Virus record (IMG/VR): IMGVR_UViG_3300005330_000014
Coordinates: 1 to 64,000 of that record
From: a virus
Taxonomy: Duplodnaviria; Caudoviricetes
Reading direction: 5' to 3' (one strand)
DNA: 64,000 nt
In this document: piece by piece, positions 45,563 to 61,552 of the stretch
Numbering within the stretch: the first letter of the stretch is position 1
Layout of the letters: every line of letters begins with the position of its first letter
The notes under the pieces: model-generated
What the model was told of the DNA's origin: nothing
Seen by the model: the letters and a program-made list of their open reading frames with translations, nothing else
Databases searched by the model: none
Position numbers and translations under genes: made by a program

Positions 45563-45835
45563 CTAGCCTTTCTTCGCTTGCTGTGCGCACCGATACGCTG
45601 GCGTATGGTGGGGCCAAGCTTCATGTCCGCTAAGGGTAAGGCGGAAATGAGACAACGCATATACAGCCATAGGGCCACAAGCTGACAGTCCGCCTTGCGC
45701 GTTTATCCATCCTTCTGCATAGCCTATATAATACGCCATTTCTACGGGGGACAATTCCCCGTTAGCGTTGTATTTAGGTTGCTCAATTATCTCTGTCAGC
45801 TTTGCTAGCAGTACTTGATACGGTGTTTTTGGCAT
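45563..45835 (-). CDS. Hypothetical protein
   Basis: (AACT)n leader. Confidence 0.6.
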   Translation of the reverse strand: MPKTPYQVLLAKLTEIIEQPKYNANGELSPVEMAYYIGYAEGWINAQGGLSACGPMAVYALSHFRLTLSGHEAWPHHTPAYRCAQQAKKG

Positions 45836-45919: not shown

Positions 45920-46474
45920 TTACACACACTCTTCAGGGTCAATCTCTGTTAGTCCCTCAGTGTCCACGCTAGGCGCATCGCCCGCACTGCTAGCGCCATT
46001 TCCGCCCTCCCCTGCTAGCTTGTTGAGATTTTGACCGTTGAGCCAATAAACGTTATTCACGTCCTTGGTTAGCATGCCGCTATCGCGCAAAGCGAGTACC
46101 TTGCCTATCTGCTCCTCACGCGTGAGGCCGTTGATACCAAGCGCAATTTCCTTTGCCGGGGTGAACGTCCTAAACGTCCCATAACGCGCGTTAAAGGCTG
46201 CTTCGTTCGCTCCCCGCGTAGGCTGCATTACTGGCGATGATGCGCGCGCTACGCTAGCCATGTCGCTCACTTGTCGCACGCTAGCCGCAATGCGTTGCGG
46301 ATTCACTCCCGCTGCAACAAGCCCATCATATATCTCCAGAGCGTGTTTCACGTCACCTGCCACTAGCATAATTGCAAAGCTAATTGGCGCGTTAATTGGC
46401 GTTTCACGCGGCTCGATAGTTTCCGCTTGCGCGGCTTTTGCCGCTTTCTTCTTTTGAGTCGTTTTCTTTTTCAT
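45920..46474 (-). CDS. Hypothetical protein with basic N-tail, RuvA-domain-III-like segment and acidic C-tail
   Basis: LVAAGVNPQRIAASVRQV resembles RuvA C-terminal [18 protein letters not shown] (by eye). Confidence 0.55.
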   Translation of the reverse strand: MKKKTTQKKKAAKAAQAETIEPRETPINAPISFAIMLVAGDVKHALEIYDGLVAAGVNPQRIAASVRQVSDMASVARASSPVMQPTRGANEAAFNARYGTFRTFTPAKEIALGINGLTREEQIGKVLALRDSGMLTKDVNNVYWLNGQNLNKLAGEGGNGASSAGDAPSVDTEGLTEIDPEECV

Positions 46475-46483
46475 CGAAATTGA

Positions 46484-46711
46484 TTAGTTAAGGGTTTCCA
46501 TTTGATTTGCCCATTTCCAGAAAACACTTTGTTTCGCCTTGTCGTTTGTGGCGTCAATTTCCTTGTCGCGGGTTATGTAACCCTGCCAGTAAGAAATTGT
46601 TGAATGAATTAGACGCGAACGAGAAACGGGAGAATCTGCCAATTGCAAAATAGCCGTTTGTGTGTCGCGGAATTGATCATCTAGCTTTGCTTTGATTTCC
46701 AAGGTAGTCAT
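46484..46711 (-). CDS. Hypothetical protein
   Basis: (AACT)n leader; operonic. Confidence 0.6.
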   Translation of the reverse strand: MTTLEIKAKLDDQFRDTQTAILQLADSPVSRSRLIHSTISYWQGYITRDKEIDATNDKAKQSVFWKWANQMETLN

Positions 46712-46794
46712 ATACTTATACTCAGTTAATTAGTTAGTTAGTTAAATTGACGGGAAAGGGGACGGATGGAACGTCTAACCTTGCCCTTTGTTAA

Positions 46795-47772
46795 TTACTT
46801 GCGCGCGGCTTTCGCGGCTTTTTGCTTGGTCGCAATCATTTCCATATAATCCGCCCCCCCTTTGGCAAGCTGCCATCCTCCGCGCACAGGTTCTACCATT
46901 CCTTCGCTCGCGAGCCAGTTAACGCGGTCAAGCGTGCTCTTTTTCTTTTCGTCGCGTACTTTGAAGCGGAGAACATCTGCCGTAACGTGTTTCTCTTTTA
47001 CGATAGTGTTGAGGATCGTAATGTCTTCCCTCCGCAATCCCTTGGGGAAAAATCCCTTTGACCTAAGCAATTCCGTTACGTCGTCGCCTTTCAGTTTGCG
47101 AATGTCTTTCGCCTTCGCGCGATTGACGATAGGTCCAACTACTTCCTCCAAATCCCCCGGGAATGGCTTAACGCGGTCAAGTAACGCGTTCATGCCATCC
47201 TCCGTAAGCGCAACATCCTCACGGGCCAGAAATAGCTCGGCAATTTTCTCCATCTCGTTGCGCTTGTAAGCGCCAGTGATGAAGGAGCGACAACGGCGTT
47301 GCATCGCCTTATCGAGTGGCATGTTGCTGGCGAAAATATGAATATGATTTGTTGGGTCGAAATGGAAACAGTTTCCTTGCTTCCAAATCGTATGAGCCTC
47401 CGTTACTTGCGTCGTCAGTGCTTTAATCAAATCCAGTCCCTGCTTTTGCGCGTGGAATTCATCCCACAGAATTACGTAGGGGATTGCGCTCACTTGTTGC
47501 GTGTCAGGGTCAAACGACGCGATTTTATTCGCCATTTGATACAACTCCTTCATGCCAGCGTTTGGGGGCACTTCGTGATAATTGAATCCGAAATTGACCA
47601 ATTGCTCGGCCAACGCACGGGCGAGATTGCTTTTCCCCGTTCCTGTGTAGCCTCCCAAAAAGATTGGACGCCATTTGTACACCTCATTTTTCTTTGCGCT
47701 ATTGGCATGCGCCAAAAGCATTTCATTCAATTCCCCGACAATTTCAGTCTGTCCGATATACTTAGTAATCAT
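46795..47772 (-). CDS. RuvB-like AAA+ ATPase
   Basis: Walker A GYTGTGKS; Walker B ILWDEFH; sensor/arginine finger (ASN...MQRRC); GLRREDITIL and C-terminal winged helix as in RuvB. Confidence 0.8.
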   Translation of the reverse strand: MITKYIGQTEIVGELNEMLLAHANSAKKNEVYKWRPIFLGGYTGTGKSNLARALAEQLVNFGFNYHEVPPNAGMKELYQMANKIASFDPDTQQVSAIPYVILWDEFHAQKQGLDLIKALTTQVTEAHTIWKQGNCFHFDPTNHIHIFASNMPLDKAMQRRCRSFITGAYKRNEMEKIAELFLAREDVALTEDGMNALLDRVKPFPGDLEEVVGPIVNRAKAKDIRKLKGDDVTELLRSKGFFPKGLRREDITILNTIVKEKHVTADVLRFKVRDEKKKSTLDRVNWLASEGMVEPVRGGWQLAKGGADYMEMIATKQKAAKAARK

Positions 47773-47804
47773 AATCAGTTTTCTAGTTAGTTAGTTAATT
47801 TGTT

Positions 47805-48141
47805 TCCTCTGCATTTGCTTATCAGCTTTCCCGCCTTGGAACGGTTTAGAGTCTAGCGGATATGCCAGATTGTCTAAGGTGCATTAAACCGGCAAATCGC
47901 TTGTCTTGAATCGGCATCGTAATGGATGCCTAAACGACTAAGGTTTGCCAACGATGCCAGCGTGACTGTGAGGCTAATACTCGCCAGTCCTAACGTGCCC
48001 ATGCTGTCCAATCGTATCTAGTCGGCAATTCCCGCGTTTCGCAACGCGTTCTCTGCTCTGCATTCTCTCTCTTTATCCGCGCCGAGCACTGAGTTTGTGT
48101 CCTCTCGGCATCCCCATTTCCACACTGCATAGAGAGAATAA
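47805..48141 (-). ncRNA. Candidate ~340-nt structured RNA upstream of the RuvB-like gene
   Basis: At least seven 6-9 bp helices incl. CGCGTT-GCGA-AACGCG GNRA hairpin and crossing helices; GC-rich; no ORF of 60 aa or more. Confidence 0.5.
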
Positions 48142-48576
48142 CCCGTACCCATATAAGGAGCAACATTTAAATACTTAATTTCAGTCAATTTTTAAAATAA
48201 TTCCGCGCGGCAATGTGATGATTGGCATAAAACTTGTTTTCGATTGTTTTGTTTAATCGAAAGTTTGGCACGCTTCTTTTCTATAATCTTTAGAAAATCT
48301 TTAAATAAGTCAAATAAGTCAATTTAATTAATTAGTTATTTACTTTAGCCAATCTAATCAACCCTGCCAAATAATCAATATCCCTAGATAATCAATACGT
48401 CTTAACTATTTAGTTTACTTAAGTTAATAGTTAACCTATCTGAAGTATCCGCCGCGTAGCCGCGCGGCCAAATTGCCGGGTGCCCCTTATTACGTTCCTC
48501 ATACGTTCAAACGGAGGGTCTGTTTTCGCCGCTAGGCATTATTAAGAGTTTAATTGTTTAAAACTGAGGGCCAGCC

Positions 48577-48611
48577 GTACAGCAAGAATGCCGCCCATAT
48601 TAAAGAGCGGC
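48577..48611 (-). terminator. Terminator-like hairpin + 9 nt + GTAC
   Basis: GCCGCTC/GGGCGGC stem, ATTCTTGCT, GTAC. Confidence 0.6.
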
Positions 48612-48644
48612 AATCTTGAAAAGTGAGATTTATTATTTAGTTAC

Positions 48645-49097
48645 TTAATACTCTTCGGGTTCGATGGGTTCATCCATGTCGCTTTCATCGTAACCACTCA
48701 AAACGCAAGGGCGATAACGGCTCATTTTCTCGGCGTGGCAAGACTTACAGGTGCGGCAAAGATAAATTCCGCGCGCATCGCTGTTTGAATGGGAGGGCAA
48801 ACCACTGCCACAATTGCAAAGGCGGGTGACAACGGAGAAAGCCATTACCTCGATACTTTCCCACTCTTGCGCGATTGCCTTTTCATAATTTGGCCGCGCG
48901 CATTCATTCAAGCTTTCCACGTCCACCTTGCCCATCGAATCGCAGGAGAAACTATACCCGCCGTTCTTGGTAGTGAAGTGCAACGAGAAAGTTGTCTCGA
49001 TGATTTCGTGATCATCACGTTCAATATGTTTAGTTAAACCGGCAGCCACTTCATGAGTGTCAAACCAGCGGGAGAAGGAGATGGATGGATATTTCAT
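48645..49097 (-). CDS. Hypothetical protein with C-terminal zinc finger (CxC...DARGIY.CRTCxxC)
   Basis: Likely start MKYPS at 49097, 8 nt after the -10 box of promoter 49106-49134. Confidence 0.65.
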   Translation of the reverse strand: MKYPSISFSRWFDTHEVAAGLTKHIERDDHEIIETTFSLHFTTKNGGYSFSCDSMGKVDVESLNECARPNYEKAIAQEWESIEVMAFSVVTRLCNCGSGLPSHSNSDARGIYLCRTCKSCHAEKMSRYRPCVLSGYDESDMDEPIEPEEY

Positions 49098-49191
49098 ATA
49101 TTCCTTTTTTAATCCACTCAATCAATTCGTGCAACAAAAATTTTTAAATTCTTTCTTAATTACTTATTTACTCTGGAAAATAGTCTAATCA

Positions 49192-49235
49192 GTACAAAAG
49201 GAAACCCCCACTGCCGCGCGGACAATGAGGGTTTC
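49192..49235 (-). terminator. Terminator of candidate sRNA A (hairpin + 9 nt + GTAC)
   Basis: GAAACCC/GGGTTTC stem enclosing CCGCGCGG, T-rich tail, GTAC. Confidence 0.7.
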
Positions 49236-49470
49236 AAGGTGCTTTGCCTTGCGGCCTATCTTTGAGTTTTAAGCCATCGGCATTTCAGGCGGGCTGTCCG
49301 TTAGGACTTTTATTTGTTTACTTAGTTATTTGTCAGAGACTATTTCCGCCTTCACTGCCCATTACATATCTGCTAGCTAGACAGACTCGGGGACTCGACC
49401 GACGGTTTATTTCAATTTGAGTTTTTCACTTTTCAACATCGCTCTTATTATTGAGCAGGTTATTTCTAAC
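49196..49470 (-). ncRNA. Candidate sRNA A (~275 nt)
   Basis: Promoter-to-terminator unit whose longest ATG ORF is 10 codons; AGGCGG/CCGCCT and CCGTCGG/CCGATGG helices; GTCC-TAAC-GGAC and GCC-GCAA-GGC hairpins. Confidence 0.55.
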
Positions 49471-49476
49471 GAGTCC

Positions 49477-49505
49477 ATTTTACCATACCAATCCAAACGC
49501 GTCAA
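49477..49505 (-). promoter_or_regulatory. Sigma70 promoter of sRNA A
   Basis: TTGACG-17-TAAAAT with extended TG and upstream A/T tract. Confidence 0.75.
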
Positions 49506-49665
49506 CAAAAATTTTCAACTATTTTCAAAAATCTTTTTCCATCTTAATTATCCGCCCGAATTGATAGTTTGTTTTAATCTGTTTTAATCCGATTGTTTAG
49601 TTAATTAGTAATTAGGTTATTTGTTTTCTTCATTTAATTATTTAGTTGTTTAGTTATTTGAATCA

Positions 49666-49706
49666 GTACAAGAAAAAACCCGCCACCCTCTTTCGAGAGT
49701 GACGGG
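49666..49706 (-). terminator. Intrinsic terminator (hairpin + 9 nt + GTAC)
   Basis: CCCGTCACTCTC-GAAA-GAGGGTGGCGGG, TTTTTTCTT, GTAC. Confidence 0.8.
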
Positions 49707-49721
49707 CTTCCGTAGGCGATA

Positions 49722-50132
49722 TTACTTCGCGGGCGTCAAAACAGCCTTTGCCGTCTTCACGTTTTTCTTTGCGACGGGCTTCGCGGCCTTTGCCTTCGAC
49801 TCCGCCGCCTTCTTTGGCTTGTTCGTGCTGCCGACGGGACGACCCGACTTCGCGGCTGCCATCTTGATGCCGCTCTCGATAGGGTACGGGATTTTCGCGT
49901 TGCCCTTGGAAGGCTCCTCGGTGAGAAACACGCGAACGAATTCCTTGCCACCCTTGTGCGTTTCATGCCGCGCGGACACGGTTGCATCCATTTGCTTCGC
50001 TCCCGTGTGAGCCATCGCGTAAATATTCGCGATTTTCTGACCGTTCACGGGAACGACGAACGATTGACCCTTCCGCATAAGGCGGAGCGTGGCGGAGATG
50101 CTGAACTTGTTTTTATTGGAGTTGTTTTTCAT
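49722..50132 (-). CDS. Basic DNA-binding protein with AT-hook and Lys/Ala-rich tail
   Basis: GRPVGSTNKPK AT-hook-like motif; N-terminal MRKGQSFVVP...VRVF small beta domain; GC-rich codons. Confidence 0.7.
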   Translation of the reverse strand: MKNNSNKNKFSISATLRLMRKGQSFVVPVNGQKIANIYAMAHTGAKQMDATVSARHETHKGGKEFVRVFLTEEPSKGNAKIPYPIESGIKMAAAKSGRPVGSTNKPKKAAESKAKAAKPVAKKNVKTAKAVLTPAK

Positions 50133-50216
50133 ACTGTTATTTAGTTTTTTAGTTTAGTTGTTTGTTTCGAGTTTTTCTAGTCTTTCAAGCTAAGGGATTG
50201 AACCTTTTCTGTCACT

Positions 50217-50244
50217 ACTTTAGCACATATTGAGATTCTGTCAA
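50217..50244 (-). promoter_or_regulatory. Sigma70 promoter
   Basis: TTGACA-16-TG-extended TAAAGT. Confidence 0.7.
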
Positions 50245-50297
50245 CAATTATTTTAGGAAATTTTTTGGTTATGTAATTTTCTCTGTATTTGAATTGT

Positions 50298-50522
50298 TTA
50301 AATTGTTTGTTTACTTACTTTCCAAACGGGTGCCCGCAAACAATTCTGTTTCCGAAATTTCCGCAATTCTTTCCGCTTGGCTTTCAGTCCCGCCGCAATC
50401 TTTTCATTCAAAATTCCCGTGCATGTTCCCGCTTTCAAATCTTTATAATGTTTTTGTGCAATATCCGCCGCCACAGTTCCCATGATCAAATCGTTTACCG
50501 TTGGAAGATTCTTTTTGTTCAT
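50298..50522 (-). CDS. Hypothetical protein
   Basis: A/AACT-rich leader. Confidence 0.55.
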   Translation of the reverse strand: MNKKNLPTVNDLIMGTVAADIAQKHYKDLKAGTCTGILNEKIAAGLKAKRKELRKFRKQNCLRAPVWKVSKQTI

Positions 50523-50558
50523 ATTTTTAGTTTTTTTAGTGTTTGGTTTAGTTAATTA

Positions 50559-50810
50559 TTAGTTTTTAATTAAGCTGTGCCACGTTCCCTTGCCACGTCC
50601 CCGGATTTTTACCTCCAGTATTTCGGCGGGCTCAAAATTCCTCTCAATCCTCCGCATGATTTCATAAAGGTGAAAAGAATGATCCGCGCGAATCCAGAGA
50701 ATGTGCCCGCGTCCCTCGCCATCAGTAACGCGGAAAGAATAATCCCGGCATTTGTTGGCGGAACTACCGAAAACGAAAGGCAAACCTTGGGGAATAAAAG
50801 TAGTGATCAT
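50559..50810 (-). CDS. Hypothetical protein
   Basis: A-rich leader; operonic. Confidence 0.55.
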   Translation of the reverse strand: MITTFIPQGLPFVFGSSANKCRDYSFRVTDGEGRGHILWIRADHSFHLYEIMRRIERNFEPAEILEVKIRGRGKGTWHSLIKN

Positions 50811-50862
50811 ATTATTTATGTATTTATGTTGATTGTTTATTTAGTTTAAGTTAGTTAATTGT

Positions 50863-51069
50863 TTAGTCTTGAAAATCGCCGTAGGGGAAACCCATATCCA
50901 TTTCTTCATCGCTGCCACGTTCCAAACATCCAGAGCAGATTGAGAAACGCGAGCCTCGGGGCACTTTCGCCCCACAAGTGCATTTCATATTGAGTTGTTC
51001 TCCAGTTTCCGCATCGAAATCGGGGCAGCAACCGGATTCATGACCGCAGCAAGGGAAATCTTCGCACAT
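50863..51069 (-). CDS. Cys-rich hypothetical protein (CEDFPCCGH...)
   Basis: Eight Cys; follows promoter 51113-51141. Confidence 0.65.
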   Translation of the reverse strand: MCEDFPCCGHESGCCPDFDAETGEQLNMKCTCGAKVPRGSRFSICSGCLERGSDEEMDMGFPYGDFQD

Positions 51070-51112
51070 AATTTTGTTTATTTTTAAGGTTAAAGGTTAA
51101 TCTGACACAGCC

Positions 51113-51141
51113 AATTTATCAGCTATTCAATCATCCGTCAA
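51113..51141 (-). promoter_or_regulatory. Sigma70 promoter
   Basis: TTGACG-17-TG-extended TAAATT. Confidence 0.7.
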
Positions 51142-51174
51142 TAGAAAAATTTAGAATTTTTTTAGCTTAGATTT

Positions 51175-51223
51175 GTACAGCAAAAAAGCCGCGCGCCTTA
51201 ACCCTGACGGGTGGACACGCGGC
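51175..51223 (-). terminator. Intrinsic terminator (hairpin + 9 nt + GTAC)
   Basis: GCCGCG/CGCGGC stem, TTTTTTGCT, GTAC. Confidence 0.75.
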
Positions 51224-51250
51224 CTTTGTATTTATTTATTTAATTAAATT

Positions 51251-51394
51251 TTACATTCCTTGTTTCCGCGCCCATTTCTCGAATGCCTTATCGATACTCA
51301 ACTCCGCCACCTTTTCTTTTCGGTCCATCCGTTCATTTTGATTCGGGCGCGTATATTCGAGTTTTGTATTTTTGCGGGAGGTATGTTTTTTCAT
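51251..51394 (-). CDS. Small protein not in track (MKKHTSRKNTKLEYTRP..., 47 aa)
   Basis: AACTAA leader; clean ATG-TAA. Confidence 0.5.
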   Translation of the reverse strand: MKKHTSRKNTKLEYTRPNQNERMDRKEKVAELSIDKAFEKWARKQGM

Positions 51395-51432
51395 GAGTTA
51401 TTTTAGTTAGTAGTTATTTGTTTGTGGGAGAG

Positions 51433-51516
51433 TGGTGGCCCGCCTCGGACTCGAACCGAGAAACCTTTCGGTCAGGGATTTTAAGTCCCCCGTGTTTGCC
51501 ATTTCACCAGCGGGCC
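51433..51516 (-). tRNA. trnL: tRNA-Leu(TAA)
   Basis: GGCCCGC/GCGGGCC acceptor; loop CT-TAA-AA; long variable arm; TTCGAGT T loop; encoded ACCA. Confidence 0.92.
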
Positions 51517-51535
51517 AAAGTGTTTATTTAGTTAA

Positions 51536-51697
51536 TTAAATATATGATTCTGCCCGCTGCTCCCACGCCTGCTGCTCCCACATATCATTTGCGGCTGCCA
51601 TCGTAATTGCAAGGGCTCGATCAGCTTTGCTCATGCGTCGGATTTGTTCATGCGTAAATCCCGCGCGGCTCAATTGTTTAAGTATGTAGATATTCAT
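51536..51697 (-). CDS. Small protein not in track (MNIYILKQLSRAGF..., 53 aa)
   Basis: AACTAA leader; clean ORF. Confidence 0.5.
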   Translation of the reverse strand: MNIYILKQLSRAGFTHEQIRRMSKADRALAITMAAANDMWEQQAWEQRAESYI

Positions 51698-51791
51698 TAG
51701 TTTTTAGTTATAATTGATTAAACCGTTTTGAAAATCACAACGATTCCGATTGCAAGGAAGATTACAAATGGGTCCATGAGTTATTTATTAG

Positions 51792-52067
51792 TTAGTCAAT
51801 GAAAACGTGTGCATAATCCCCGTTAGGTAGTGATCCCGTAACAAAGTTCTTATTCCAAGAATTGCCCGCTTGTGGATTGCCAAATTTCTCAACATCTTCC
51901 GCCGCAAATTTTTCGCATAACTTTTGTGCCCCGTAAATATGTGCGGCATCGTGCCCGTCTACCTCCACCGGAATTGAAAGGGTAATTGAGCCGCGCGTAC
52001 AAAACGCTTTAATACGTGTTGGCTTTGTGTTTGTCCAAGGCAGGATTTTTGTTTGGATAGCTTGCAT
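51792..52067 (-). CDS. Hypothetical phage protein (MQAIQTK..P.TNTKPTRIKA)
   Basis: (AACT)n leader. Confidence 0.65.
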   Translation of the reverse strand: MQAIQTKILPWTNTKPTRIKAFCTRGSITLSIPVEVDGHDAAHIYGAQKLCEKFAAEDVEKFGNPQAGNSWNKNFVTGSLPNGDYAHVFID

Positions 52068-52104
52068 ATTAGTATTTAGTTAAGTAGTTAAGTTAGTTAA
52101 TTGA

Positions 52105-52341
52105 TTACTTTGATTCTTCCGTACTCCATTCAATATGATTGTTATGTTCAGTTTCGATATTGCTGATATATCCGTACTCATACAATCCGCGTTTCACGGG
52201 AATTTTGAAGTCATTTGGGCGGGTTTTCCACGTTTTCACTTTCCCGTTAACGCGGACGCGCCCGGCCAAATTGTTAATGTGATAAAGGTATTGACCGTGC
52301 TTAAGAGTGAGGGCGATTTCTTTTGTAATGTGTGGCTTCAT
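52105..52341 (-). CDS. Hypothetical phage protein (RVNGKVKTWKTRP.DF.IPVK.GLYEYGY)
   Basis: Clean ORF. Confidence 0.65.
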   Translation of the reverse strand: MKPHITKEIALTLKHGQYLYHINNLAGRVRVNGKVKTWKTRPNDFKIPVKRGLYEYGYISNIETEHNNHIEWSTEESK

Positions 52342-52811
52342 ATTTCCAATTTAAATCAGATTTTGTGCCGTAACAAGGATTATTTCTAAAAATGTTTTTA
52401 CAGAGAAAAATGCGGTTTTTGAATGGTTTTAAAGTCTTTTGAATCCGCGCGGCCAAGTTCTGTTTACTTTCAGGCGGATTTTTTAAGTTTTTCGCGGCTT
52501 TTATTAGTACTTTTACCAAAACTGATTACTTTTTTCTGATTTTTTAGTATAGTATTTAACCCAACAAGCGCCAACGTAACCAAGATACTATCCCAGAATA
52601 TCCAGAGGATTAAAGAAATCATATAGTTATATTAAGAATTATTAAGAGTTATATTAAAGTTAATTAGTTATTACCTTTAATCGCGGGGATTCTCGAATTT
52701 TGTTCACACCGATGATACGCGCGCATACATGCAGAACGAAAAACATCATTAGGTGCCCGCTTTGCCAAATCCAAATATTTTGCCGCGAGAATTTTCTGCT
52801 CGTTGCGGAAT

Positions 52812-52841
52812 ATATTAAATCCGCCCGGCTAATCTTGTCAA
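52812..52841 (-). promoter_or_regulatory. Sigma70 promoter
   Basis: TTGACA-18-TAATAT with upstream A/T tract. Confidence 0.55.
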
Positions 52842-53386
52842 TAGGATTTTTCAAGAAAAAGATTTAGGAAAAATTATTCATTTTTATTGTTTAAATCGCG
52901 CGGCTTTACGTTTTAAATGTGTAAATATAATAGTTAAAGTTAATTATTTAAGTAGTATTGTTATTAGTATTGGATTCGCTCCGTCGCCCTAACGCTAATT
53001 AACCCTAAACGAAAAAGTAGATAACCTAAACAAAGATATATTAAACTGTTAGTATAAGCCAGCTTTTAAAAGCAATTACGACTTATATTAAATTTTTTTT
53101 GTTTATTAAGTAGCTACACTTAGACAAAATGAACATGCCAAAATAATAATAATACAGAAAACTACAAACCAAAATGTTTCTTCATTATTCATATAATTGT
53201 TGAATTATCAGAGTAAAATAGTTAATTGGAAAATTATTAAATAGTATCCGTAAGGATGATTATTAAGAAAAGGAATAAAATAAGAAGGGGAAGACTATAA
53301 TTTTTATTACAAATTTTGTTTAAATCTTAGTTAATTAGCTTGTTTTTCTATTATCTTTTTTATTATCTATATCTATCCTAGTTATT

Positions 53387-53617
53387 CTAGTTTATTTCTA
53401 ATTTAATATGCATTGTATCCGCCATACTTTGATCAAACCTATTTCTTCTCATAAAGACTTTTAATGTTTGAACTTTAAAGGCATCATCTGGGATTGTAAG
53501 ATCACTAAATGGTTTGTCCGCCGAGATTGTTTCTGCTCCTACTGTAAAAACTATTTTAGTGGCCCCGCATTCTGATTGCGCGCGTTTCAGTAATTTAATA
53601 AGTTTATTGATTTCCAT
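53387..53617 (-). CDS. Hypothetical protein
   Basis: A-rich leader. Confidence 0.55.
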   Translation of the reverse strand: MEINKLIKLLKRAQSECGATKIVFTVGAETISADKPFSDLTIPDDAFKVQTLKVFMRRNRFDQSMADTMHIKLEIN

Positions 53618-53822
53618 ATTCTTTATTTTTATTTATTTCTTCTTATTCTTCTTAATTACTTTTGTTATTTCTCTCTTTACCTTAATATCACAAACCACTT
53701 TCTTATTATTACTTACCTCGATTAATTCCTTATTAATCCATTTATAAGTAAACTTAGGGAATATTCTTTTTAACTCGTCCACCAGAGTAATTTGAGCGCG
53801 CGGCTTCATATTATTTTAGTTT

Positions 53823-54026
53823 TTACTCTGGTTTATTAATTAGTTTTTTAATTCCATATTCTATCCCATCATAACATCCTACGATAACTTTTTCCATTAA
53901 TTCTCCAGTTATATTATTCCAGTAAACTGAGCCGCCCGTAGTTTCGCCCACAAATTCCCATTCTTCTTTCTCTAATAGTTTATCGCCTTCTTCTTTAGAA
54001 ATAATTTGTTCTTCAGAGTAATTCAT
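53823..54026 (-). CDS. Hypothetical protein
   Basis: A-rich leader. Confidence 0.55.
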   Translation of the reverse strand: MNYSEEQIISKEEGDKLLEKEEWEFVGETTGGSVYWNNITGELMEKVIVGCYDGIEYGIKKLINKPE

Positions 54027-54055
54027 AAAATTTATTGTTTTTCCTTAGTTATTTC

Positions 54056-54286
54056 TTACTTATTTAAATCTTTAAATCCTTCAAGGGCGAAACCAAATCC
54101 AAGTATTGAAATTCCAAAACCATAATAGTTATCTTTTATATCTGTAGCCGCGCGAATTACAGTGTCCAACTTAATATAATTGTCCGCGCGGCTTATTAAG
54201 AATGAAGGATAAAGTAATTGGAATTTTATTTTGATATTGCGGGGACTTCTGAGGTAGAAAGTCTTATGACCAGTTGAATGAATCAT
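54056..54286 (-). CDS. Hypothetical protein
   Basis: Operonic ORF. Confidence 0.5.
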   Translation of the reverse strand: MIHSTGHKTFYLRSPRNIKIKFQLLYPSFLISRADNYIKLDTVIRAATDIKDNYYGFGISILGFGFALEGFKDLNK

Positions 54287-54529
54287 ATCATTTTTTCTCT
54301 GTAATATACCATTTACTTAGTTTGTTTAATTCTCTAATTGATTTGATTGCCTTTTTATATCTTTTAACTTTAAGATTAAAAATCCAATTATTCCAAATTG
54401 TTATGAATATGTCAATCATATTGTATTGTTTATTAGTTAAAACACCATCTATCTAAAATATCATTTTGATACTCGCCACGAATCCAACCGCCCAAATTAT
54501 CAGAGTAATTAGTATGTCTAGTCTCATGA

Positions 54530-54763
54530 TTATTTTTTTAAACTATCCCAAATACGCGCGGCCTCTTCATGATTTTCAGCAACCATATCAGCATAGAAAT
54601 CTACGTCGCAATTTTCTAAGCAATAATAAGTTAATTGTTTCCCGTTGTATTGCGGTTTATAAATCACTTTCTCAATCCTAGACTGAATAATTGATTGATC
54701 CCAAATACCAAAAACTACATCGCCAACTTGGAATCGGGCGCGTTGAAGTACTGTCATTTTCAT
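54530..54763 (-). CDS. Hypothetical protein
   Basis: A-rich leader. Confidence 0.55.
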   Translation of the reverse strand: MKMTVLQRARFQVGDVVFGIWDQSIIQSRIEKVIYKPQYNGKQLTYYCLENCDVDFYADMVAENHEEAARIWDSLKK

Positions 54764-54893
54764 AATTTTTATTGATTTTTTTGTTTAGTTATTTTCTTCT
54801 GCCGTTAGGCTATCTCTGTAATCCGCCGCCGCGTGGCTTTATATATGTCCACCAATTCTCTTATTGTTTAGTTATTTGGAGTTTGTAATGAGG

Positions 54894-55202
54894 TTAATCA
54901 ATGTGCTGATTAATTATTGCTGCGATGTCGCCCAAGGATGCCCTGACTGAATTAGGTCCATGTCCATGCTCGCAAATTATAAAACTGTCTTGCAGATGTT
55001 GAGCGAGCGTGGCCACGTTTGGTCTTTCACTTTCTTCTTTAACTTTATCTTCCAAGTCTTTATTATACTTGTTTATTGAATTTACAATTTCATTATGAAT
55101 TGGTAATGTAACTCTATAGAAAATCGATGGAATCGCAAACCATATTAGCCGCGCGATTAATCCTAGTATCTTCAATAACAATTGAAATTGAGTATTATTC
55201 AT
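54894..55202 (-). CDS. Hypothetical protein
   Basis: AACT leader. Confidence 0.55.
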   Translation of the reverse strand: MNNTQFQLLLKILGLIARLIWFAIPSIFYRVTLPIHNEIVNSINKYNKDLEDKVKEESERPNVATLAQHLQDSFIICEHGHGPNSVRASLGDIAAIINQHID

Positions 55203-55237
55203 AATAGTTTTTAATTAGCTAGTTTTTAAATATTTTA

Positions 55238-55576
55238 TTATCGTTCGTCAATCATATGGGCTGAATATGTAGCTTTTGCAGTAAAGCCGCGCGGCGGCAA
55301 TTGTACCCGCTTACCTTTACAACAATGACTTTCGCAGAAGTAACCCGTTTTCTTTGCGCGGCTCAAATCTTTTTTATCCACAAAGTTTCGTATGTATACT
55401 TGTTTAGTTTTTAAATTAATTTGAATGCGAGCCATTTCTCCACAACTCCCATATTCAACAATCGCAAAATGAGTAAATCCTGATTGTTTCCAGTCAGGAG
55501 ATACAATCTCACATATTAGCAATACTTTTAAATTGTCGCCACCGATTCCGCGCGGATTACTAAGTTTGATATTCAT
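55238..55576 (-). CDS. Hypothetical protein
   Basis: Operonic ORF. Confidence 0.55.
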   Translation of the reverse strand: MNIKLSNPRGIGGDNLKVLLICEIVSPDWKQSGFTHFAIVEYGSCGEMARIQINLKTKQVYIRNFVDKKDLSRAKKTGYFCESHCCKGKRVQLPPRGFTAKATYSAHMIDER

Positions 55577-55610
55577 ATCATTATATAAGTAGTATAATAT
55601 AGTTTGTTAG

Positions 55611-55805
55611 TCAGTCAGTTAATTTATGGATATCAGGGATTTTAGAATGCAGTTTTAAGTACGAGTTGTGACTATTAACGCGGAATTCAATCATTGAATC
55701 GTCAGTAAAGTAAATACCTACCCAATCGCCGTCTAGCCCAACTTGGGCAGTATCCGCACGGACTTCTTTAATTGTTTTACCTTTAAGCTGATCAAATAAA
55801 TGCAT
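55611..55805 (-). CDS. Hypothetical protein
   Basis: (AACT)n leader. Confidence 0.55.
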   Translation of the reverse strand: MHLFDQLKGKTIKEVRADTAQVGLDGDWVGIYFTDDSMIEFRVNSHNSYLKLHSKIPDIHKLTD

Positions 55806-55822
55806 ATGATTAGTTAGTTTAA

Positions 55823-56614
55823 TTACTTAGCCAAATACAGCCATTGGCACCCGGGGGACTTCAATTGTTTCAATACTTTAACTGCACATTCAGCAATTTT
55901 ACTTAGTAGTTTATCAGTAATTTTGAAACAGTCGGGAATATTTTCAATTAGTTCGGTAGGGTAAGGATATTTATTAATCAAGTTATGCTGTAGCTGATCA
56001 AATTCATCATTATAACCACCCAAATCACGCAAATAATTATTCAGTTTAACTACTTGTTTGGATTTGATTTTAGGAGATTTCATCGATTTCAATCCAAGCA
56101 GTGTTTTAACTTGTTTTAATAATCTTTGATACTCGCTAAATTCATCATTTTCCATTCTATCCCAGCCCTTATTTTTCTTTTTCAATTCTTTATCAACTAC
56201 TTCTTTAATTTTTGGCAGCAAAATTTCTGTAAATAGCAGTTTAGATAGTAATTCATTAAAATCATCTCCATCAAGCATATCACTGCCCAATTGCGCGATT
56301 GCCACCCGTTTCAAGCCTTGGGCGCGGGCCTGTTTAGATGACCATTTCAAATCATTTAATTGTATTTTAAAATCCCTAACGTCTGGATGCACGCAATCAG
56401 GTTTATCATTATGAGGCAAACCCATTGCGTAATTAACGGCGGCTTCAACGCACATTTGACCCTTGCGCGGGCGACCTAATCCACAGGACAAACCAAAAGA
56501 TAATACTTTAACTACTCGTTGAGCAGTATCTTTAGTGGGCGTTTCCACTTCTTCACTCGGGCGCAAGTCAGAGAATTTAACGTTAGTGTGAGTCTTGGTA
56601 TTGGATGTTTTCAT
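55823..56614 (-). CDS. Hypothetical phage protein (GQMCVEAAV...PH.D.P.CV.P.VR.F.I.LND..WSS..ARA.GL)
   Basis: 263 aa ORF with a conserved-looking Cys/His/Asp segment; function unknown. Confidence 0.65.
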   Translation of the reverse strand: MKTSNTKTHTNVKFSDLRPSEEVETPTKDTAQRVVKVLSFGLSCGLGRPRKGQMCVEAAVNYAMGLPHNDKPDCVHPDVRDFKIQLNDLKWSSKQARAQGLKRVAIAQLGSDMLDGDDFNELLSKLLFTEILLPKIKEVVDKELKKKNKGWDRMENDEFSEYQRLLKQVKTLLGLKSMKSPKIKSKQVVKLNNYLRDLGGYNDEFDQLQHNLINKYPYPTELIENIPDCFKITDKLLSKIAECAVKVLKQLKSPGCQWLYLAK

Positions 56615-56854
56615 TGATTTGTTTGTTTTTATTTATTGCGGTTAATTAGTTAGGTTTAGTTAATTAATTCTTTTCACTTCAACTTCAATATCCCAAACGG
56701 GCGCGAGTTCGTTAAGGATATAAGCATAACCAATTCGTCGGAGGCGCGCGGGCTTAGATTCGCGCGGATTCGTGATGATGAAAAACCAAATTAGGAAAAG
56801 AATTTCACCGAATAGATAGAATAGAATGAATGAGAGCATAGTTAAGTTAGTGAA

Positions 56855-57127
56855 TTAGTTAATATTTGTAGTAATATATCCCCAAACATCCGTTTTGGGT
56901 GAGTGTCCATCGCCCGATTTCAAATAGCACAAATCCAAATATTTGTTTGGCGTGCCATTTCGCTGATTAAATACTTGAATGGTTGCTAATTGTTTGCCTA
57001 TTGAGTCTAACCAAGCTTTTTCATTTAGTTTTTTAACTTCAAAGGCCGCGCGGGCCTCTTCCATCGAAACAAACATAACGCTGGCGGGATATTTTTCAGG
57101 GTAAACGATTGCTTTATCTTTATCCAT
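56855..57127 (-). CDS. Hypothetical protein
   Basis: AACT leader. Confidence 0.55.
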   Translation of the reverse strand: MDKDKAIVYPEKYPASVMFVSMEEARAAFEVKKLNEKAWLDSIGKQLATIQVFNQRNGTPNKYLDLCYLKSGDGHSPKTDVWGYITTNIN

Positions 57128-57154
57128 AAAACAAAATTAGTTATTTATTGAATC

Positions 57155-57397
57155 TTATTGAATCAACCATTTGAAAGCTGCTTCGTCGCCCGGCTGCGCG
57201 GACAATTTCAGAGAATGAGATTCTCCAAAACACTTAATTACTGATTTATAACCCGGAGTTATTTCGATAAATCCCGCACTAATGGGCGTCCAACCTTGGA
57301 ATTTCCGCGCGAAGTCCGCGTGTTCAATCCACTTGGGGAAAATGAAACCGTCAAAGCCCGTTGTTCCTTCAAATATGATATATTTACCTGATTGCAT
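57155..57397 (-). CDS. Hypothetical phage protein (KYIIF...H...SAGF...C.GES.SL.L...D)
   Basis: Clean ORF. Confidence 0.6.
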   Translation of the reverse strand: MQSGKYIIFEGTTGFDGFIFPKWIEHADFARKFQGWTPISAGFIEITPGYKSVIKCFGESHSLKLSAQPGDEAAFKWLIQ

Positions 57398-57419
57398 GAT
57401 TTTTAATGATTTAATTTAT

Positions 57420-57608
57420 TTAGCGTTCAGCGTCAACAAGCTCCCCATATTCCCTTGCCAACAAGACAAGAGTTTCTCCCATCTTTTTATGATCGTACGC
57501 CCGAAATGCGGCAGTATATTTCATAGCTGGAAATTTAATTGTTATTTCCGTGGGGTTTTTGGAGTCGATTAGTATTTCAGCTTTGAGAGTAATGATAGAG
57601 CGAGCCAT
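57420..57608 (-). CDS. Hypothetical protein
   Basis: Operonic ORF. Confidence 0.5.
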   Translation of the reverse strand: MARSIITLKAEILIDSKNPTEITIKFPAMKYTAAFRAYDHKKMGETLVLLAREYGELVDAER

Positions 57609-57644
57609 AGAATTTAGTTAATTAAAGTTATTTGAATTGTTTAG

Positions 57645-58055
57645 TTATTCAGCACGATCATTAATTTTAATTGGATTACTAAAGAATCGACTGTCACCCG
57701 TCCAAACGAAATTACCGCCGAACATCGTCCATTTACCAGAGACAATCAAAGAAACAGGAATCGCGCGGAGTCGAATGCCGTAGCACATATCTTGTACAAT
57801 AATGAAATCGTCATTAAATCCTTGTTTAGCTAAATCATTAGCTAGATTCCTAGCCTCTATTTGAGAGTAACCAAGAGCTTCGCAGCCGCGCGTGTTCAAG
57901 CTAAGTGAATCCGGGGCGGAAGTCCGTTCAGCTTTATAATGACAATCAACCGTTTTAGAGCGTTTAGATACTCCATTTTTGCTACCATCACCATAATCAG
58001 AGCGATAGATATCAGCGGGCAGGCAAGGAGTTTTAGAAGAGAAACGAATTTTCAT
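57645..58055 (-). CDS. Hypothetical phage protein (MFGGNF..T.DSRF...PI.I.DR.E), probably leaderless
   Basis: ATG 6 nt after the -10 box of promoter 58062-58090. Confidence 0.7.
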   Translation of the reverse strand: MKIRFSSKTPCLPADIYRSDYGDGSKNGVSKRSKTVDCHYKAERTSAPDSLSLNTRGCEALGYSQIEARNLANDLAKQGFNDDFIIVQDMCYGIRLRAIPVSLIVSGKWTMFGGNFVWTGDSRFFSNPIKINDRAE

Positions 58056-58061
58056 ACCTTT

Positions 58062-58090
58062 ATCTTAAATTGTTTGGCGGAATCAGTCAA
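58062..58090 (-). promoter_or_regulatory. Sigma70 promoter (leaderless transcript)
   Basis: TTGACT-17-TAAGAT-6 nt-ATG. Confidence 0.75.
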
Positions 58091-58124
58091 GGATTAATTT
58101 TCTTTAAATTCGTCTTTGATTTTC

Positions 58125-58487
58125 TTAATAATTTGAATCTTGTCCGTTAGTTTTCTTAATTTGTTTAGTTACTTTCTTGGCTTTAGCCGCCGTTTTAATG
58201 ACACTTTCGCGCGGCTCAAATTCATAAGTTACTTTATCAATAGTTATTTGTTTAATACCGTCAACAGAGATATTCCGATAGTCTTGAACTGAAGTATCAA
58301 AAACAGTAATTAACTTATAATCTTTTGGTTTATAAGGTTGTTGCCCGCCTTGTAAATGAGCAGTGACATGACGCCTGCATACCATCTTTCTTTCTTCCCC
58401 CGTGCTGCGTTTGATAAATACAACTGAAAAGATACGATTGCCCGCCGCATCAATTGCCGCTTTGATATTTTCGTAATTTGGTTTCAT
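58125..58487 (-). CDS. SH3-fold/WYL-like nucleic-acid-binding protein
   Basis: FSVVFIKRSTGEERKM...LITVFD....YRNI pattern. Confidence 0.6.
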   Translation of the reverse strand: MKPNYENIKAAIDAAGNRIFSVVFIKRSTGEERKMVCRRHVTAHLQGGQQPYKPKDYKLITVFDTSVQDYRNISVDGIKQITIDKVTYEFEPRESVIKTAAKAKKVTKQIKKTNGQDSNY

Positions 58488-58535
58488 AACTTACTTATTA
58501 TTTTAATTATTTTAATTGTTTAGTTAGTTAATTAG

Positions 58536-58621
58536 TGAGAAGCGGGACTACCACCCCGTTTATTGCTCTTGGGCTTTCAGGCTGATTTCTCGAAGTTCTA
58601 GCCTTTTCATCCCGCTTCTCA
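58536..58621 (-). ncRNA. Intercistronic structured RNA (12-bp closing stem, three-way junction)
   Basis: TGAGAAGCGGGA/TCCCGCTTCTCA perfect stem enclosing two hairpins. Confidence 0.5.
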
Positions 58622-58624
58622 AAT

Positions 58625-58942
58625 CTAGTCTAGACTATCGGGCGCGTTAGTCAAGCACTTTTTATTTCGGCAAATATATCTATTTTTCTTTTTGTTAAAG
58701 TTACCTTCACGGTGACAGTCGGGGCATTCATCTTCAAACAAAGCAATTTTAATAGAAGTACCTGAAATATTCCGCAATGCTTCCATAAATTGACTCCGGT
58801 AAATCGCGCGGCTTTCAATGTCCATGAAGGGGAAATGCGTTTCAATTTCCACACCAGTAGCTTCCAATCCAACGCTTCTGTCCCCATCATTTGCTTCAAT
58901 AAATAGTTTAAATGAAGTGTTGGAACGTTTATTTGTTTTCAT
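58625..58942 (-). CDS. Hypothetical protein with C-terminal zinc ribbon
   Basis: CPDC...CRNKKC. Confidence 0.6.
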   Translation of the reverse strand: MKTNKRSNTSFKLFIEANDGDRSVGLEATGVEIETHFPFMDIESRAIYRSQFMEALRNISGTSIKIALFEDECPDCHREGNFNKKKNRYICRNKKCLTNAPDSLD

Positions 58943-58953
58943 TTGTGTGTTAT

Positions 58954-59205
58954 TTAGTTCTTAAAATAGTTATTCATATAAGTCTTAAGATGATCGTCAT
59001 TGCAAGTTCGATATACTTCATCCATTAGTTTTTTGTTCGGCCACAATTTATTTTGAGCCGCGCATTTTGGACTCGTTAAAGCAAGGTGAAGAATCCTCCA
59101 ACGGACGCTCGGGGGAATCACTTTGATTTTATGAGGATTGCAGAGCGCAACCGCTTTATCCATCGCCTTATCTAACTTCTCTTTTAATTGTCCTTGAATT
59201 TTCAT
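58954..59205 (-). CDS. Hypothetical protein
   Basis: Operonic ORF. Confidence 0.55.
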   Translation of the reverse strand: MKIQGQLKEKLDKAMDKAVALCNPHKIKVIPPSVRWRILHLALTSPKCAAQNKLWPNKKLMDEVYRTCNDDHLKTYMNNYFKN

Positions 59206-59226
59206 AATATTTAAAGAATTAATTAG

Positions 59227-59544
59227 TTAAACTATTTCACTTTCCAATTTGATTAACTTTTTAAGCAATTCTCCGCCGATGCATGAGTAAAGAGAGTGAC
59301 TGTCTTCTTCGCGTTGCTGACTGATTGCCCAAGCTTTATTTTCGGGGATATTATAAGTATATTCACAATCTTTTAAATGATGAACATTAGCCGTGCCAAC
59401 AAATTGTTCTTCATCCAACCTTTCTTGCTCGGCGCTTTCAACCGTCATTGTCATTGCGTCCAATGTTTCCTTGGGGAAGTAGCCACGCGCGGCTGCCCAT
59501 TGGAGAGTTTCCATTTCGGCATTTGAAAGAGTGATTTGATACAT
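59227..59544 (-). CDS. Hypothetical acidic protein
   Basis: AACTAA leader. Confidence 0.6.
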   Translation of the reverse strand: MYQITLSNAEMETLQWAAARGYFPKETLDAMTMTVESAEQERLDEEQFVGTANVHHLKDCEYTYNIPENKAWAISQQREEDSHSLYSCIGGELLKKLIKLESEIV

Positions 59545-59569
59545 TGTATTATTTAGTTAATTATTTAGA

Positions 59570-59749
59570 TTAAGCAGAAAGTGTCATTTCATCAGAATTA
59601 AGATATTTAATATATTCACGTTCTGTATAAATAGAAGCTAGTTTTTGTTCATGATGTTTTAACCGCGCAGCCAAACGTTTTGCGTCGCGAGTATTTTTTA
59701 CCGTGAAAATTTCGGGGCGGGTATGCGCGGAGTAGGCAATAACTTTCAT
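59570..59749 (-). CDS. Small protein not in track (MKVIAYSAHTRPEIF..., 59 aa), probably leaderless
   Basis: ATG 6 nt after the -10 box of promoter 59756-59784. Confidence 0.6.
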   Translation of the reverse strand: MKVIAYSAHTRPEIFTVKNTRDAKRLAARLKHHEQKLASIYTEREYIKYLNSDEMTLSA

Positions 59750-59755
59750 ACCTTA

Positions 59756-59784
59756 AATTTAATCCCTTTTGTTTAATCCGTCAA
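59756..59784 (-). promoter_or_regulatory. Sigma70 promoter (leaderless transcript)
   Basis: TTGACG-17-TAAATT-6 nt-ATG. Confidence 0.75.
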
Positions 59785-59821
59785 GAGAAATCTTGTGGAT
59801 TTTACCTTGTATATTTGACCA

Positions 59822-59859
59822 GTACAAACAGCAAGCCCGGCGCTTTTCGGGCACCGGGC
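59822..59859 (-). terminator. Terminator of candidate sRNA B (hairpin + 9 nt + GTAC)
   Basis: GCCCGGTGCCC-GAAA-AGCGCCGGGC, TTGCTGTTT, GTAC. Confidence 0.65.
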
Positions 59860-60055
59860 TCTATTGTTTCCGCGTTTCCTTGCTATATTTAACTCTAAGT
59901 TAACTAATTATTTTTCGGCTCAGGAGGCGGGGAGCGTCTTTCGACTCACGTATACTTCATTATAGTTTCCTTATTTAGTTTAATGGTTAATGGTTAATGG
60001 TTTAGTTACTTACTTTATTGCCGCCTAACTGCATGACACGCGGCCCATCCTTGGC
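59826..60055 (-). ncRNA. Candidate sRNA B (~230 nt), apparent paralog of sRNA A
   Basis: Promoter-to-terminator unit with only minigenes; shares GCAGT..AGGCGG.AATA and GTC-loop-GAC..CCCGCCT-N5-GCCGA blocks with A. Confidence 0.55.
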
Positions 60056-60061
60056 AAATCC

Positions 60062-60090
60062 ATTTTACCACTTCAAATCCAATCAGTCAA
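60062..60090 (-). promoter_or_regulatory. Sigma70 promoter of sRNA B
   Basis: TTGACT-17-TAAAAT; TGGTAAAATGGA identical to the sRNA A promoter. Confidence 0.75.
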
Positions 60091-60119
60091 GAACTATTTT
60101 CAAAAATTTTTAATGCTCC

Positions 60120-60386
60120 TTAATCTTTCAAATCCTCGAATTGTTTAATTTCTTTAAATGTTAAAGTCGTGATACTTCTTTTTTGACCATGTAAATGTTT
60201 AATTATTGGGTGCATCGCGCGGCCACACAGCTTTAACCCAGCTTCGACTCCAGCAATAAAATCTTGTTCAATAGCCCATGATTGGGCGTTCGGTTTCTTA
60301 GCTATTCCTTTACATTTAAATCGGGCGCATATTCCTAATGCTAAAACGAATACTTCAATTGCCAGCATTCTATTATTTGTGCTCAT
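60120..60386 (-). CDS. Hypothetical protein
   Basis: Clean ORF immediately downstream of hairpin 60420-60480. Confidence 0.6.
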   Translation of the reverse strand: MSTNNRMLAIEVFVLALGICARFKCKGIAKKPNAQSWAIEQDFIAGVEAGLKLCGRAMHPIIKHLHGQKRSITTLTFKEIKQFEDLKD

Positions 60387-60419
60387 TTATTACAGTTAAT
60401 TATTAATTAAAATTCTAAA

Positions 60420-60480
60420 GTACAGCAATCCGCCCGATTCGCTGCTCCTAGTCCATAGGCGGGGCAGTCAAATCGGGCGG
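60420..60480 (-). terminator. Terminator/attenuator-like long hairpin with weak U tract + GTAC
   Basis: CCGCCCGATT/AATCGGGCGG outer stem, ATTGCT, GTAC. Confidence 0.55.
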
Positions 60481-60732
60481 GCGTCTTTATTCCGTGTTTT
60501 AGCGTTAAGTTCTAATTATATTTAATCTAGTATAACAATAACAAGTTTTTATTTAGTTATTTAAGGCGGTGAGCGGATTTTCATAAATTATTTAAGCGAG
60601 TTTCGCGTTTAGTTTTCGTATCCTCAGATACACAGTATGTCACTATTTAGTTAACTTGGCGGATTGGTGGCACTCTTCAATTAGTTATTTAGCTACATAT
60701 ATGAGGGATTTAGATTCCCTGAGTCGATTTAC

Positions 60733-60760
60733 AGTCTAGCATATCCGCCGGGACTGTCAA
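60733..60760 (-). promoter_or_regulatory. Sigma70 promoter
   Basis: TTGACA-16-TG-extended TAGACT. Confidence 0.65.
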
Positions 60761-60830
60761 CGAAAATCTTTGATTTTTATTTTTGAAAAACTTTTGGGAG
60801 TTAGTTTCTTCCTCCCATTTAGTTAATTAT

Positions 60831-61235: not shown

Positions 61236-61277
61236 ATTTTTAGTTATTTTAGTTGTTTTATATAGCGATACTATTAA

Positions 61278-61457
61278 TTAATTACGGGGATGTTGCTTCC
61301 AGCGAAGCAGCCAACCGTAAGCGTGGGACGTTTTCGCCGCGTGCAATCCACTGCCACCCTTTGCTTTTGCCGCGTCATTCAATTCTTTAATCGCTTCATC
61401 CGCTGAAATTTCGCCTGACTTCACGCGTTCTTTCAGCATCATTTGAGAGATGTTCAT
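61278..61457 (-). CDS. Small protein not in track (MNISQMMLKERVKSGEISADEAI..., 59 aa)
   Basis: (AACT)n leader; clean ORF. Confidence 0.55.
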   Translation of the reverse strand: MNISQMMLKERVKSGEISADEAIKELNDAAKAKGGSGLHAAKTSHAYGWLLRWKQHPRN

Positions 61458-61552
61458 ATGTTTTAGTTAGTTAATTAGGTTACTAAGTACTGAGTTGTTT
61501 TGTTTGTTTTTAGTTACTGATTATTTAGTTGTTTAATATGTAATATGTTTAG

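Follow-up and report, generated by a model that had tools for sequence, protein, structure and literature searches.

A probable stand-alone early non-coding RNA gene, with a possible paralog, in an uncultured jumbo phage from soil

In phage lambda, the pR'-tR' region yields a terminated 194-nucleotide (nt) '6S' transcript, which accumulates until the Q antiterminator permits read-through. Another kind of terminator-ended RNA is represented by small RNAs (sRNAs) that act as protein sponges, such as CrcZ with its A-rich Hfq/Crc sites and CsrB/RsmZ with their GGA sites, whereas the ZTP (pfl) riboswitch contains a GGCGG-type segment that is paired, over a variable linker, with a CCGCC segment farther on. 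In addition, 38 phage sRNAs without described function were tabulated in a 2025 review (PMC12197685). The subject of the present analysis is unit A, a non-coding transcription unit of ~275 nt (49196..49470), together with a similar unit B of ~230 nt (59826..60055), both on the minus strand (as are all of their features given below) of a 64,000-nt window that represents the first 64 kb of the 208,233-bp IMG/VR record IMGVR_UViG_3300005330_000014 (34.8% GC; CheckV completeness 95%), whose source is an uncultured jumbo phage of ~208 kb from soil. Unit A is a new expressed phage sRNA, and phage sRNAs without assigned function are a kind already known (PMC12197685). Like these, it is a short non-coding phage transcript which was detected by RNA sequencing and has no assigned function or family; it differs from them in being neither antisense nor derived from an untranslated region but equipped with a strong promoter and terminator of its own, and in coming from an uncultured 208-kb soil phage that has no sequenced close relative and in which it is seen in metatranscriptome contigs alone.

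Unit A is bracketed by a sigma-70-type promoter and a strong intrinsic terminator, as an earlier note on this DNA had described. The promoter (49477..49505) consists of TTGACG, a 17-nt spacer and a TGn-extended TAAAAT (10/12 with TG in a consensus scan), and upstream of the -35 element lies an UP-like, A/T-rich 15-mer, TTTTTGAAAATAGTT (49517..49531), whose only other exact copy in the 208 kb is found at 60092-60106. Transcription is predicted to start near 49470, and the terminator with its tail, CUUUUGUACUG (49190..49235), contains a 15-pair hairpin (49235-49201) with the palindrome CCGCGCGG in its loop. No open reading frame (ORF) of at least 20 amino acids with an ATG start was present in A or B on either strand, and the statement of the earlier note that A has no ATG ORF over 10 codons is upheld at this limit of 20. 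Antisense ORFs with a TTG start (58, 56, and 33 amino acids) were rejected, since they have no ATG start and a non-genic appearance.

Discrete RNA from unit A is present in two rhizosphere metatranscriptome runs of different studies, whose contigs together cover 49239..49459. Run X4 contained one contig at 49240-49459 (220 nt, depth 30.1) and run X6 one contig at 49239-49455 (217 nt, depth 6.2), which fall between the predicted start and the terminator, where an RNA species of ~275 nt had been expected by the earlier note. Among all pieces of RNA across 46,000-64,000 (18 kb) in these runs, A was the most abundant: in the deeper run the gene upstream of A had a depth of 6.8x and two other early stretches 3.8-4.9x, the gene just past the terminator (P0001) had no RNA contig, and over both runs the flanking genes of A ranged in depth from 0 to 6.8. 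Such a pattern would not arise from DNA contamination, and in other samples DNA contigs continue through both ends of A. The contigs end 11-15 nt inside the predicted start and 4-5 nt short of the terminator hairpin, and such uneven trimming (11-15 nt at the promoter side and ~44 nt at the terminator side) is as expected of random-primed cDNA from minus-strand RNA. As a contig at 60.4-60.8 kb likewise halts just before a terminator hairpin, the 3' limit of the A contigs is probably technical. We infer the minus strand of the RNA from the promoter and the terminator, and its exact ends are likewise predictions. That other contig belongs to a third non-coding gap (60387-60830, minus strand) with a promoter at 60760-60733 (TTGACA-16-TAGACT) and a terminator near 60430-60486, in which one metatranscriptome gave RNA at 60492-60683 with a depth of 4.9.

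A search of the whole window against Rfam 15 at the gathering threshold returned two tRNAs only, and even at E<=10 the best scores for A and B were 17.1 bits against a gathering threshold of 85 and 16.4 against 228.9. The ZTP/pfl family (RF01750), whose consensus of two sub-domains linked through a pseudoknot the earlier note had considered otherwise unmatched while suggesting a check against Rfam, is absent from the E<=10 lists of both units, so that no family matches A or B. By ARAGORN and Rfam, the window contains four tRNAs, none of which lies within either unit. Unit A has the promoter, the intrinsic terminator, the absence of an ORF and the discrete transcript by which a stand-alone sRNA gene is recognized, and it is highly probable that its RNA is genuine, abundant, early and non-coding, is transcribed independently, and falls outside the known families. 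Unit B has the same anatomy, and its transcript was not seen.

The promoter region of unit B (60062..60106; core promoter 60090-60062) comprises the same UP-like 15-mer, TTGACT and a TGn TAAAAT, with a predicted start at ~60055, and its terminator with tail, GCUGUUUGUACUG (59820..59861), has an 11-pair hairpin (59861-59833) and a weak U-tract. In the interior of A, the segment AGGCGG (49346..49351) is followed by a hairpin, GUCC-UAAC-GGAC (49296..49307), and by CCCGCCU-GAAAU-GCCGA (49277..49293), and in B the corresponding segments are AGGCGG (60021-60026), the hairpin GUC-GAAA-GAC (59936-59945) and CCCGCCU-CCUGA-GCCGA (59915-59931). Several words are confined to A and B in the 208,233 bp, including the 15-mer, a promoter 12-mer (TGGTAAAATGGA), TTTGTACTG after the terminator, and CCCGCCT-N5-GCCGA, and the same is true of the composite AGGCGG...CCCGCCT-N5-GCCGA. 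The genome has four sites at which CCGCCT comes no more than 200 nt after AGGCGG, two of which are A and B; a third, at 45639-45695, lies inside a 90-amino-acid ORF and was set aside as a chance match. A chained alignment with cheap gap extension and free linkers, anchored on ATGGGC, AGGCGGNAATA, AGTC, CCCGCCT, and GCCGA, was beaten by 5, 4, and 2 of 300 dinucleotide shuffles under three gap settings, and judged by this alignment alone the co-linear blocks would be marginally supported, real at roughly p = 0.01 and no better. On balance, B is probably a diverged paralog of A with the same type of promoter.

Structure prediction suggests that AGGCGG and CCGCCU pair over a long range in A, with a probability of ~1.0 (0.98-1.0 over the helix) and an extension of GGCA (49356-49359) with UGCC (49279-49282) across a 4x4 internal loop, and the small hairpin directly before the 3' strand of the helix is present in both the minimum free energy (MFE) and the centroid fold. 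In B, the same pairing is predicted as sub-optimal (~0.35, within 0.9 kcal/mol of the optimum), with GGC:GCC or CAG:CUG as candidate extensions; hence the loop-closing helix proposed by the earlier note is well predicted in A, but only as a sub-optimal alternative in B. Including the terminator, the fold of A has an MFE of -75.1 kcal/mol (z -2.84 against shuffles), whereas B is not more stable than its shuffles (z -1.24). The helix would enclose a strand of 53 nt in A and of 90 nt in B, which is rich in A and poor in G, contains UAA in each of the three frames, and ends in the small tetraloop hairpin.

This enclosed strand matches in composition both the three-frame-stop spacers and the leaders of the phage, the latter as the earlier note had also observed, and these leaders show no Shine-Dalgarno (SD) signal. 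The 60 nt that precede gene starts are enriched ~4.7-fold in AACTAA, an SD-like word of any kind precedes 35 of the 323 genes only, and the leaders contain 7-13% G at positions -20 to -1, with A peaks at -3, -6, and -13/-14. SD-independent initiation has been described for Bacteroidetes (PMC6847099), and by comparison the leader pattern of the phage resembles it. Despite such Bacteroidetes-like leaders, sigma-70-like sequences (TTGAC/TGnTAAAAT) make up the early promoters, and TAnnTTTG, the promoter motif of Bacteroidota, showed no enrichment in the phage genome. A Bacteroidota-like host would lack Hfq.

Unit A resembles the CrcZ and CsrB/RsmZ sponges as an abundant, terminator-ended RNA that would expose single-stranded motifs similar to mRNA leaders. 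The differences are that A and B have one exposed A-rich stretch each, GGA is by estimate not above composition, and no homology was detected. Inspection by eye gave no enrichment of CsrA- or Hfq-type motifs beyond what composition predicts, and this idea was dropped. The likeness to the ZTP riboswitch lies in the GGCGG-type segment and its distal partner; the linker of 53-90 nt in A and B is leader-like, and no expression-platform alternative to their terminators was seen on reading by eye, without a systematic search. The failure to see antiterminator pairing by eye would argue against a riboswitch-type sensor, and both the decoy and the ligand-sensor roles proposed by the earlier note are speculation.

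The explanation that accounts best for these observations, with a probability of about 0.45, is that A is a stand-alone early non-coding RNA gene, that B is a probable paralog, and that a clamp in the RNA displays a leader-like strand. The strong promoter with its UP-like tract, TTGACG, and TGn-TAAAAT would drive A and the intrinsic terminator would end it, and the RNA accumulates above the neighbouring early mRNAs. The sole part common to A and B would be the clamp AGGCGG:CCGCCU, extended by GGC(A):(U)GCC, which may close a G-poor, A-rich single strand of 50-90 nt ending in the tetraloop hairpin. Such an RNA might act in trans, with its leader-like strand serving to titrate a factor that has affinity for A-rich single-stranded RNA, for which an RNase, an RNA-binding protein of the host, and the 30S subunit or S1 are candidates; this function, though the favoured one, is doubtful. 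It is very unlikely, if conceivable, that A and B found a new class of early phage RNAs in which a short GC clamp holds out a long loop that mimics an SD-less leader and that, at the very start of infection in a host with SD-independent initiation, captures an initiation factor or ribosomal subunit or serves as a decoy for an RNA-sensing defence or RNase.

Several results weigh against this explanation, and those that concern the kinship of the two units would favour the leading alternative, an unlikely one, namely that A is a lone sRNA, B shares only the class of early promoter, and the interior blocks are chance GC-rich words plus an AACUAA-type spacer, with no family and no conserved helix. 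The earlier note had described three blocks shared in the same order by A and B; the words do exist and as a composite are exclusive to the two units, but MAFFT failed to recover blocks ii and iii (the latter running from AGTC to GCCGA), and local alignment of the interiors scored 19 against 18.5+-2.5 for shuffles. A composition-aware local alignment gave 42.5 against 33.5+-5.9, with 31 of 400 shuffles as good, and unrelated non-coding gaps, both from this genome and from G001 (a 167-kb contig whose large terminase, TerL, is 65% identical), matched A or B with scores just as high; all of these have the AACUAA-type spacer. The genome shows a general enrichment of GC-rich words, GGCGG/CCGCC among them. 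The shared promoter core claimed by the earlier note is real insofar as the 12-mer is unique to A and B, but with 34 of 52 positions identical the pair barely exceeds another pair of the same promoter class (33/52). Its argument that a hairpin which varies in length and still pairs reflects structural conservation did not hold: the spacing from AGTC to CCCGCCT is 22 nt in both copies, and an ungapped alignment with differing hairpins explains block iii equally well, so that there is no compensatory evidence. Without the terminator, A has a z of -1.55 (12 of 200 shuffles as good) and B of +0.74, and these weak folding scores suggest mostly open RNAs with one clamp rather than compact riboswitch-like folds. 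The contigs show neither the strand nor the true ends of the RNA, and unit B, for which a species of ~230 nt had been anticipated, had no RNA contig in the two runs, which is no proof of silence since contigs drop rare RNAs. A decoy that copies the phage leaders would, moreover, compete with phage mRNAs as well. On the other side, chance similarity has to accommodate the chained alignment, exceeded by just 2-5 of 300 shuffles, and the exclusivity of the composite, the UP-like 15-mer, and the -10 12-mer.

The (GC)TGTAC sequence after the terminators is likewise weak support for a kinship of A and B, as it is general in the phage lineage and not specific to the two units. Early-region terminators consist of a hairpin, a short T-run, and (GC)TGTAC, and several of their U-tracts are weak. 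In the window, TGTAC-tailed terminators occur at 48580-48590, 49190-49200, 49662-49671, 51180-51195, 59820-59828, and 60425-60440, and in two distant relatives they were found at ~8505, 9810, and 11470 of G001 and at ~785 of L335.

Neither unit was found in any relative available (G001, three syntenic fragments, and TerL relatives), which also weighs against the explanation. Comparison of A and B with G001 by blastn gave promoter-tract or 14-22-nt chance matches only and regular-expression scans gave none; three further TerL relatives had no match to the units, and the matches listed by pattern scans of IMG/VR and of JGI metagenomes were all attributed to chance and lay in coding DNA rich in GC. 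The corresponding loci are organized differently: homologs of P0001 downstream of A (L080/L081, one of them 54% identical) have an upstream gap of just 128 nt, the homolog of P0002 upstream of A (L335, 54%) keeps a homologous terminator with the TGTAC tail followed by a gene on the opposite strand, and the homolog of P0004 upstream of B (L336, 58%) is directly followed by the next gene. Conservation of the blocks in related phages, by which the earlier note proposed to judge its prediction, was thus seen in none of the relatives examined. As all of these relatives are distant, a missing unit is weak evidence against function. Nevertheless, with two copies in one genome and neither conservation nor covariation behind it, the claim of a family is weakly supported; what stands of the undescribed non-coding RNA family of the earlier note is that A is expressed and outside Rfam, and the family itself amounts to two units in one phage with marginal interior similarity. 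The early region of G001 has non-coding elements of its own, namely an orphan promoter-to-terminator unit of ~390 nt (8100-8510) and long leaders, one of them structured and ~270 nt in length (8560-8838); the unit and this leader (plus strand; loci L086) are both unlike A and B in sequence.

It is quite unlikely that the units act in transcription and that the RNA is a by-product, either of a cassette like lambda pR'-tR' or of an RNA-polymerase sink or insulator. The arrangement does resemble the lambda region, in which a strong promoter, ~200 nt without an ORF, a strong terminator, and genes follow one another and the terminated RNA accumulates: A and B each have a promoter, 230-275 nt without an ORF, and a terminator, with same-strand genes 70-100 nt past it, and for A an abundant terminated RNA contrasts with a silent downstream gene. 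The thermodynamically unremarkable RNA body, its absence from relatives, and the orphan unit of unrelated sequence in G001 would also be in line with such a role. However, A and B belong to the early rather than the late region, and a promoter-like site lies 6-10 nt ahead of the ATG of each downstream gene, similar to two other early promoters, with the site downstream of A including the AAAATTTTTG tract too, which implies that the units are not needed as leaders. Given these sites and the fact that no antiterminator alternative was seen, unit A is probably not a leader of the downstream gene. By reading, A and B share no -10-like pause element over their first 25 nt, and nothing upstream was seen that could pair with the arms of the terminators, with no systematic search made; nor was a Q-, N-, or put-like component identified, again without a systematic search, and the same holds for a Q-binding element, a sigma-dependent pause, and a Q gene, Q homologs not having been searched for. 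Promoter-like sites that end 6-10 nt before an ATG, from which leaderless or near-leaderless mRNAs would result, were observed at 59756-59784 in the window and at 65506 and 86379 (minus strand) in the genome.

In a highly improbable alternative, the units are what is left of early genes in decay, with the end of one gene, a spacer with stops in three frames, and the start of the next gene still lying between a live promoter and terminator, and they are transcribed without function. The linkers are ordinary intercistronic spacers of the phage with UAA in three frames, B retains a start context and an ATG followed by an early stop, and the weakly structured bodies are missing in relatives, all of which would fit decay. 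Yet promoter and terminator have stayed intact, no other phage RNA seen is as abundant as A, the inverted repeat is kept in both copies, and copies from several samples are 100% identical, although the population is nearly clonal. It is extremely improbable that the units are mRNAs of tiny peptides (MGSEGGNSL or MPMA in A; MQLGGNKVSN, MKYT, or an 18-residue UGA read-through product in B). In favour of this reading, GGCGGNAAT follows an ATG in one and the same frame in A and in B, a B AUG stands behind a typical leader whose positions -3 and -6 are A, and in a phage without SD use a missing SD is no argument against translation. However, GGN is all that the peptides have in common, A lacks an equivalent of the well-placed B ORF, TGA serves as a normal stop in this phage (27 of 231 ORF ends), and ORFs of four to ten codons are expected by chance. 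The well-placed ORF of B has four codons (AUG AAG UAU ACG UGA, 59946-59960) and is in frame with 13 more sense codons (59900-59945: GUC GAA ... AAU AAU) before UAG, from which read-through of UGA would give the 18 residues. Another short candidate ORF, of 10 codons (ATG AAG AAA ACA AAT AAC CTA ATT ACT AAT TAA; 49560-49660, minus strand), follows a typical leader between the terminator of the upstream gene and the promoter of A.

With regard to the source genome, TerL is ~40% identical to that of many freshwater contigs in addition to its closer match in G001, and contigs identical to the region originate from rhizosphere metagenomes. In the INPHARED phage collection, no match was found to unit A by blastn or to a 643-amino-acid structural protein by tblastn, and a single scan of genome contigs with a RuvB-like protein for host inference was also without a match. 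The region of 45-64 kb is a block of small minus-strand genes with two tRNAs, and GC skew around unit A gave no signal of a replication origin. A non-coding gap of 478 nt (48167-48644, minus strand) contains iteron-like direct repeats after a terminator (TATTGATTAT twice, TTGATTA, and TTGACTTATT twice) and could be a protein-binding or origin-like region. The CCGCGCGG palindrome is the most over-represented 8-mer, with 57 copies in 208 kb against ~0.17 expected by base composition, at both intragenic and intergenic sites (e.g., 48203, 48460, 49968, and 49214 in the terminator loop of A), and its 50 copies in G001 imply a lineage trait.

As it stands, A is one more orphan sRNA, and a wider family is not established. 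Functions are known for very few sRNAs of lytic or jumbo phages and for almost none from uncultured soil phages. The prediction of A from sequence, by a promoter, a terminator, and the absence of an ORF, is backed by environmental RNA, and A thereby offers a concrete target should the phage or its host ever be cultured. If true, the idea of a leader mimic would tie phage sRNAs to SD-independent translation.
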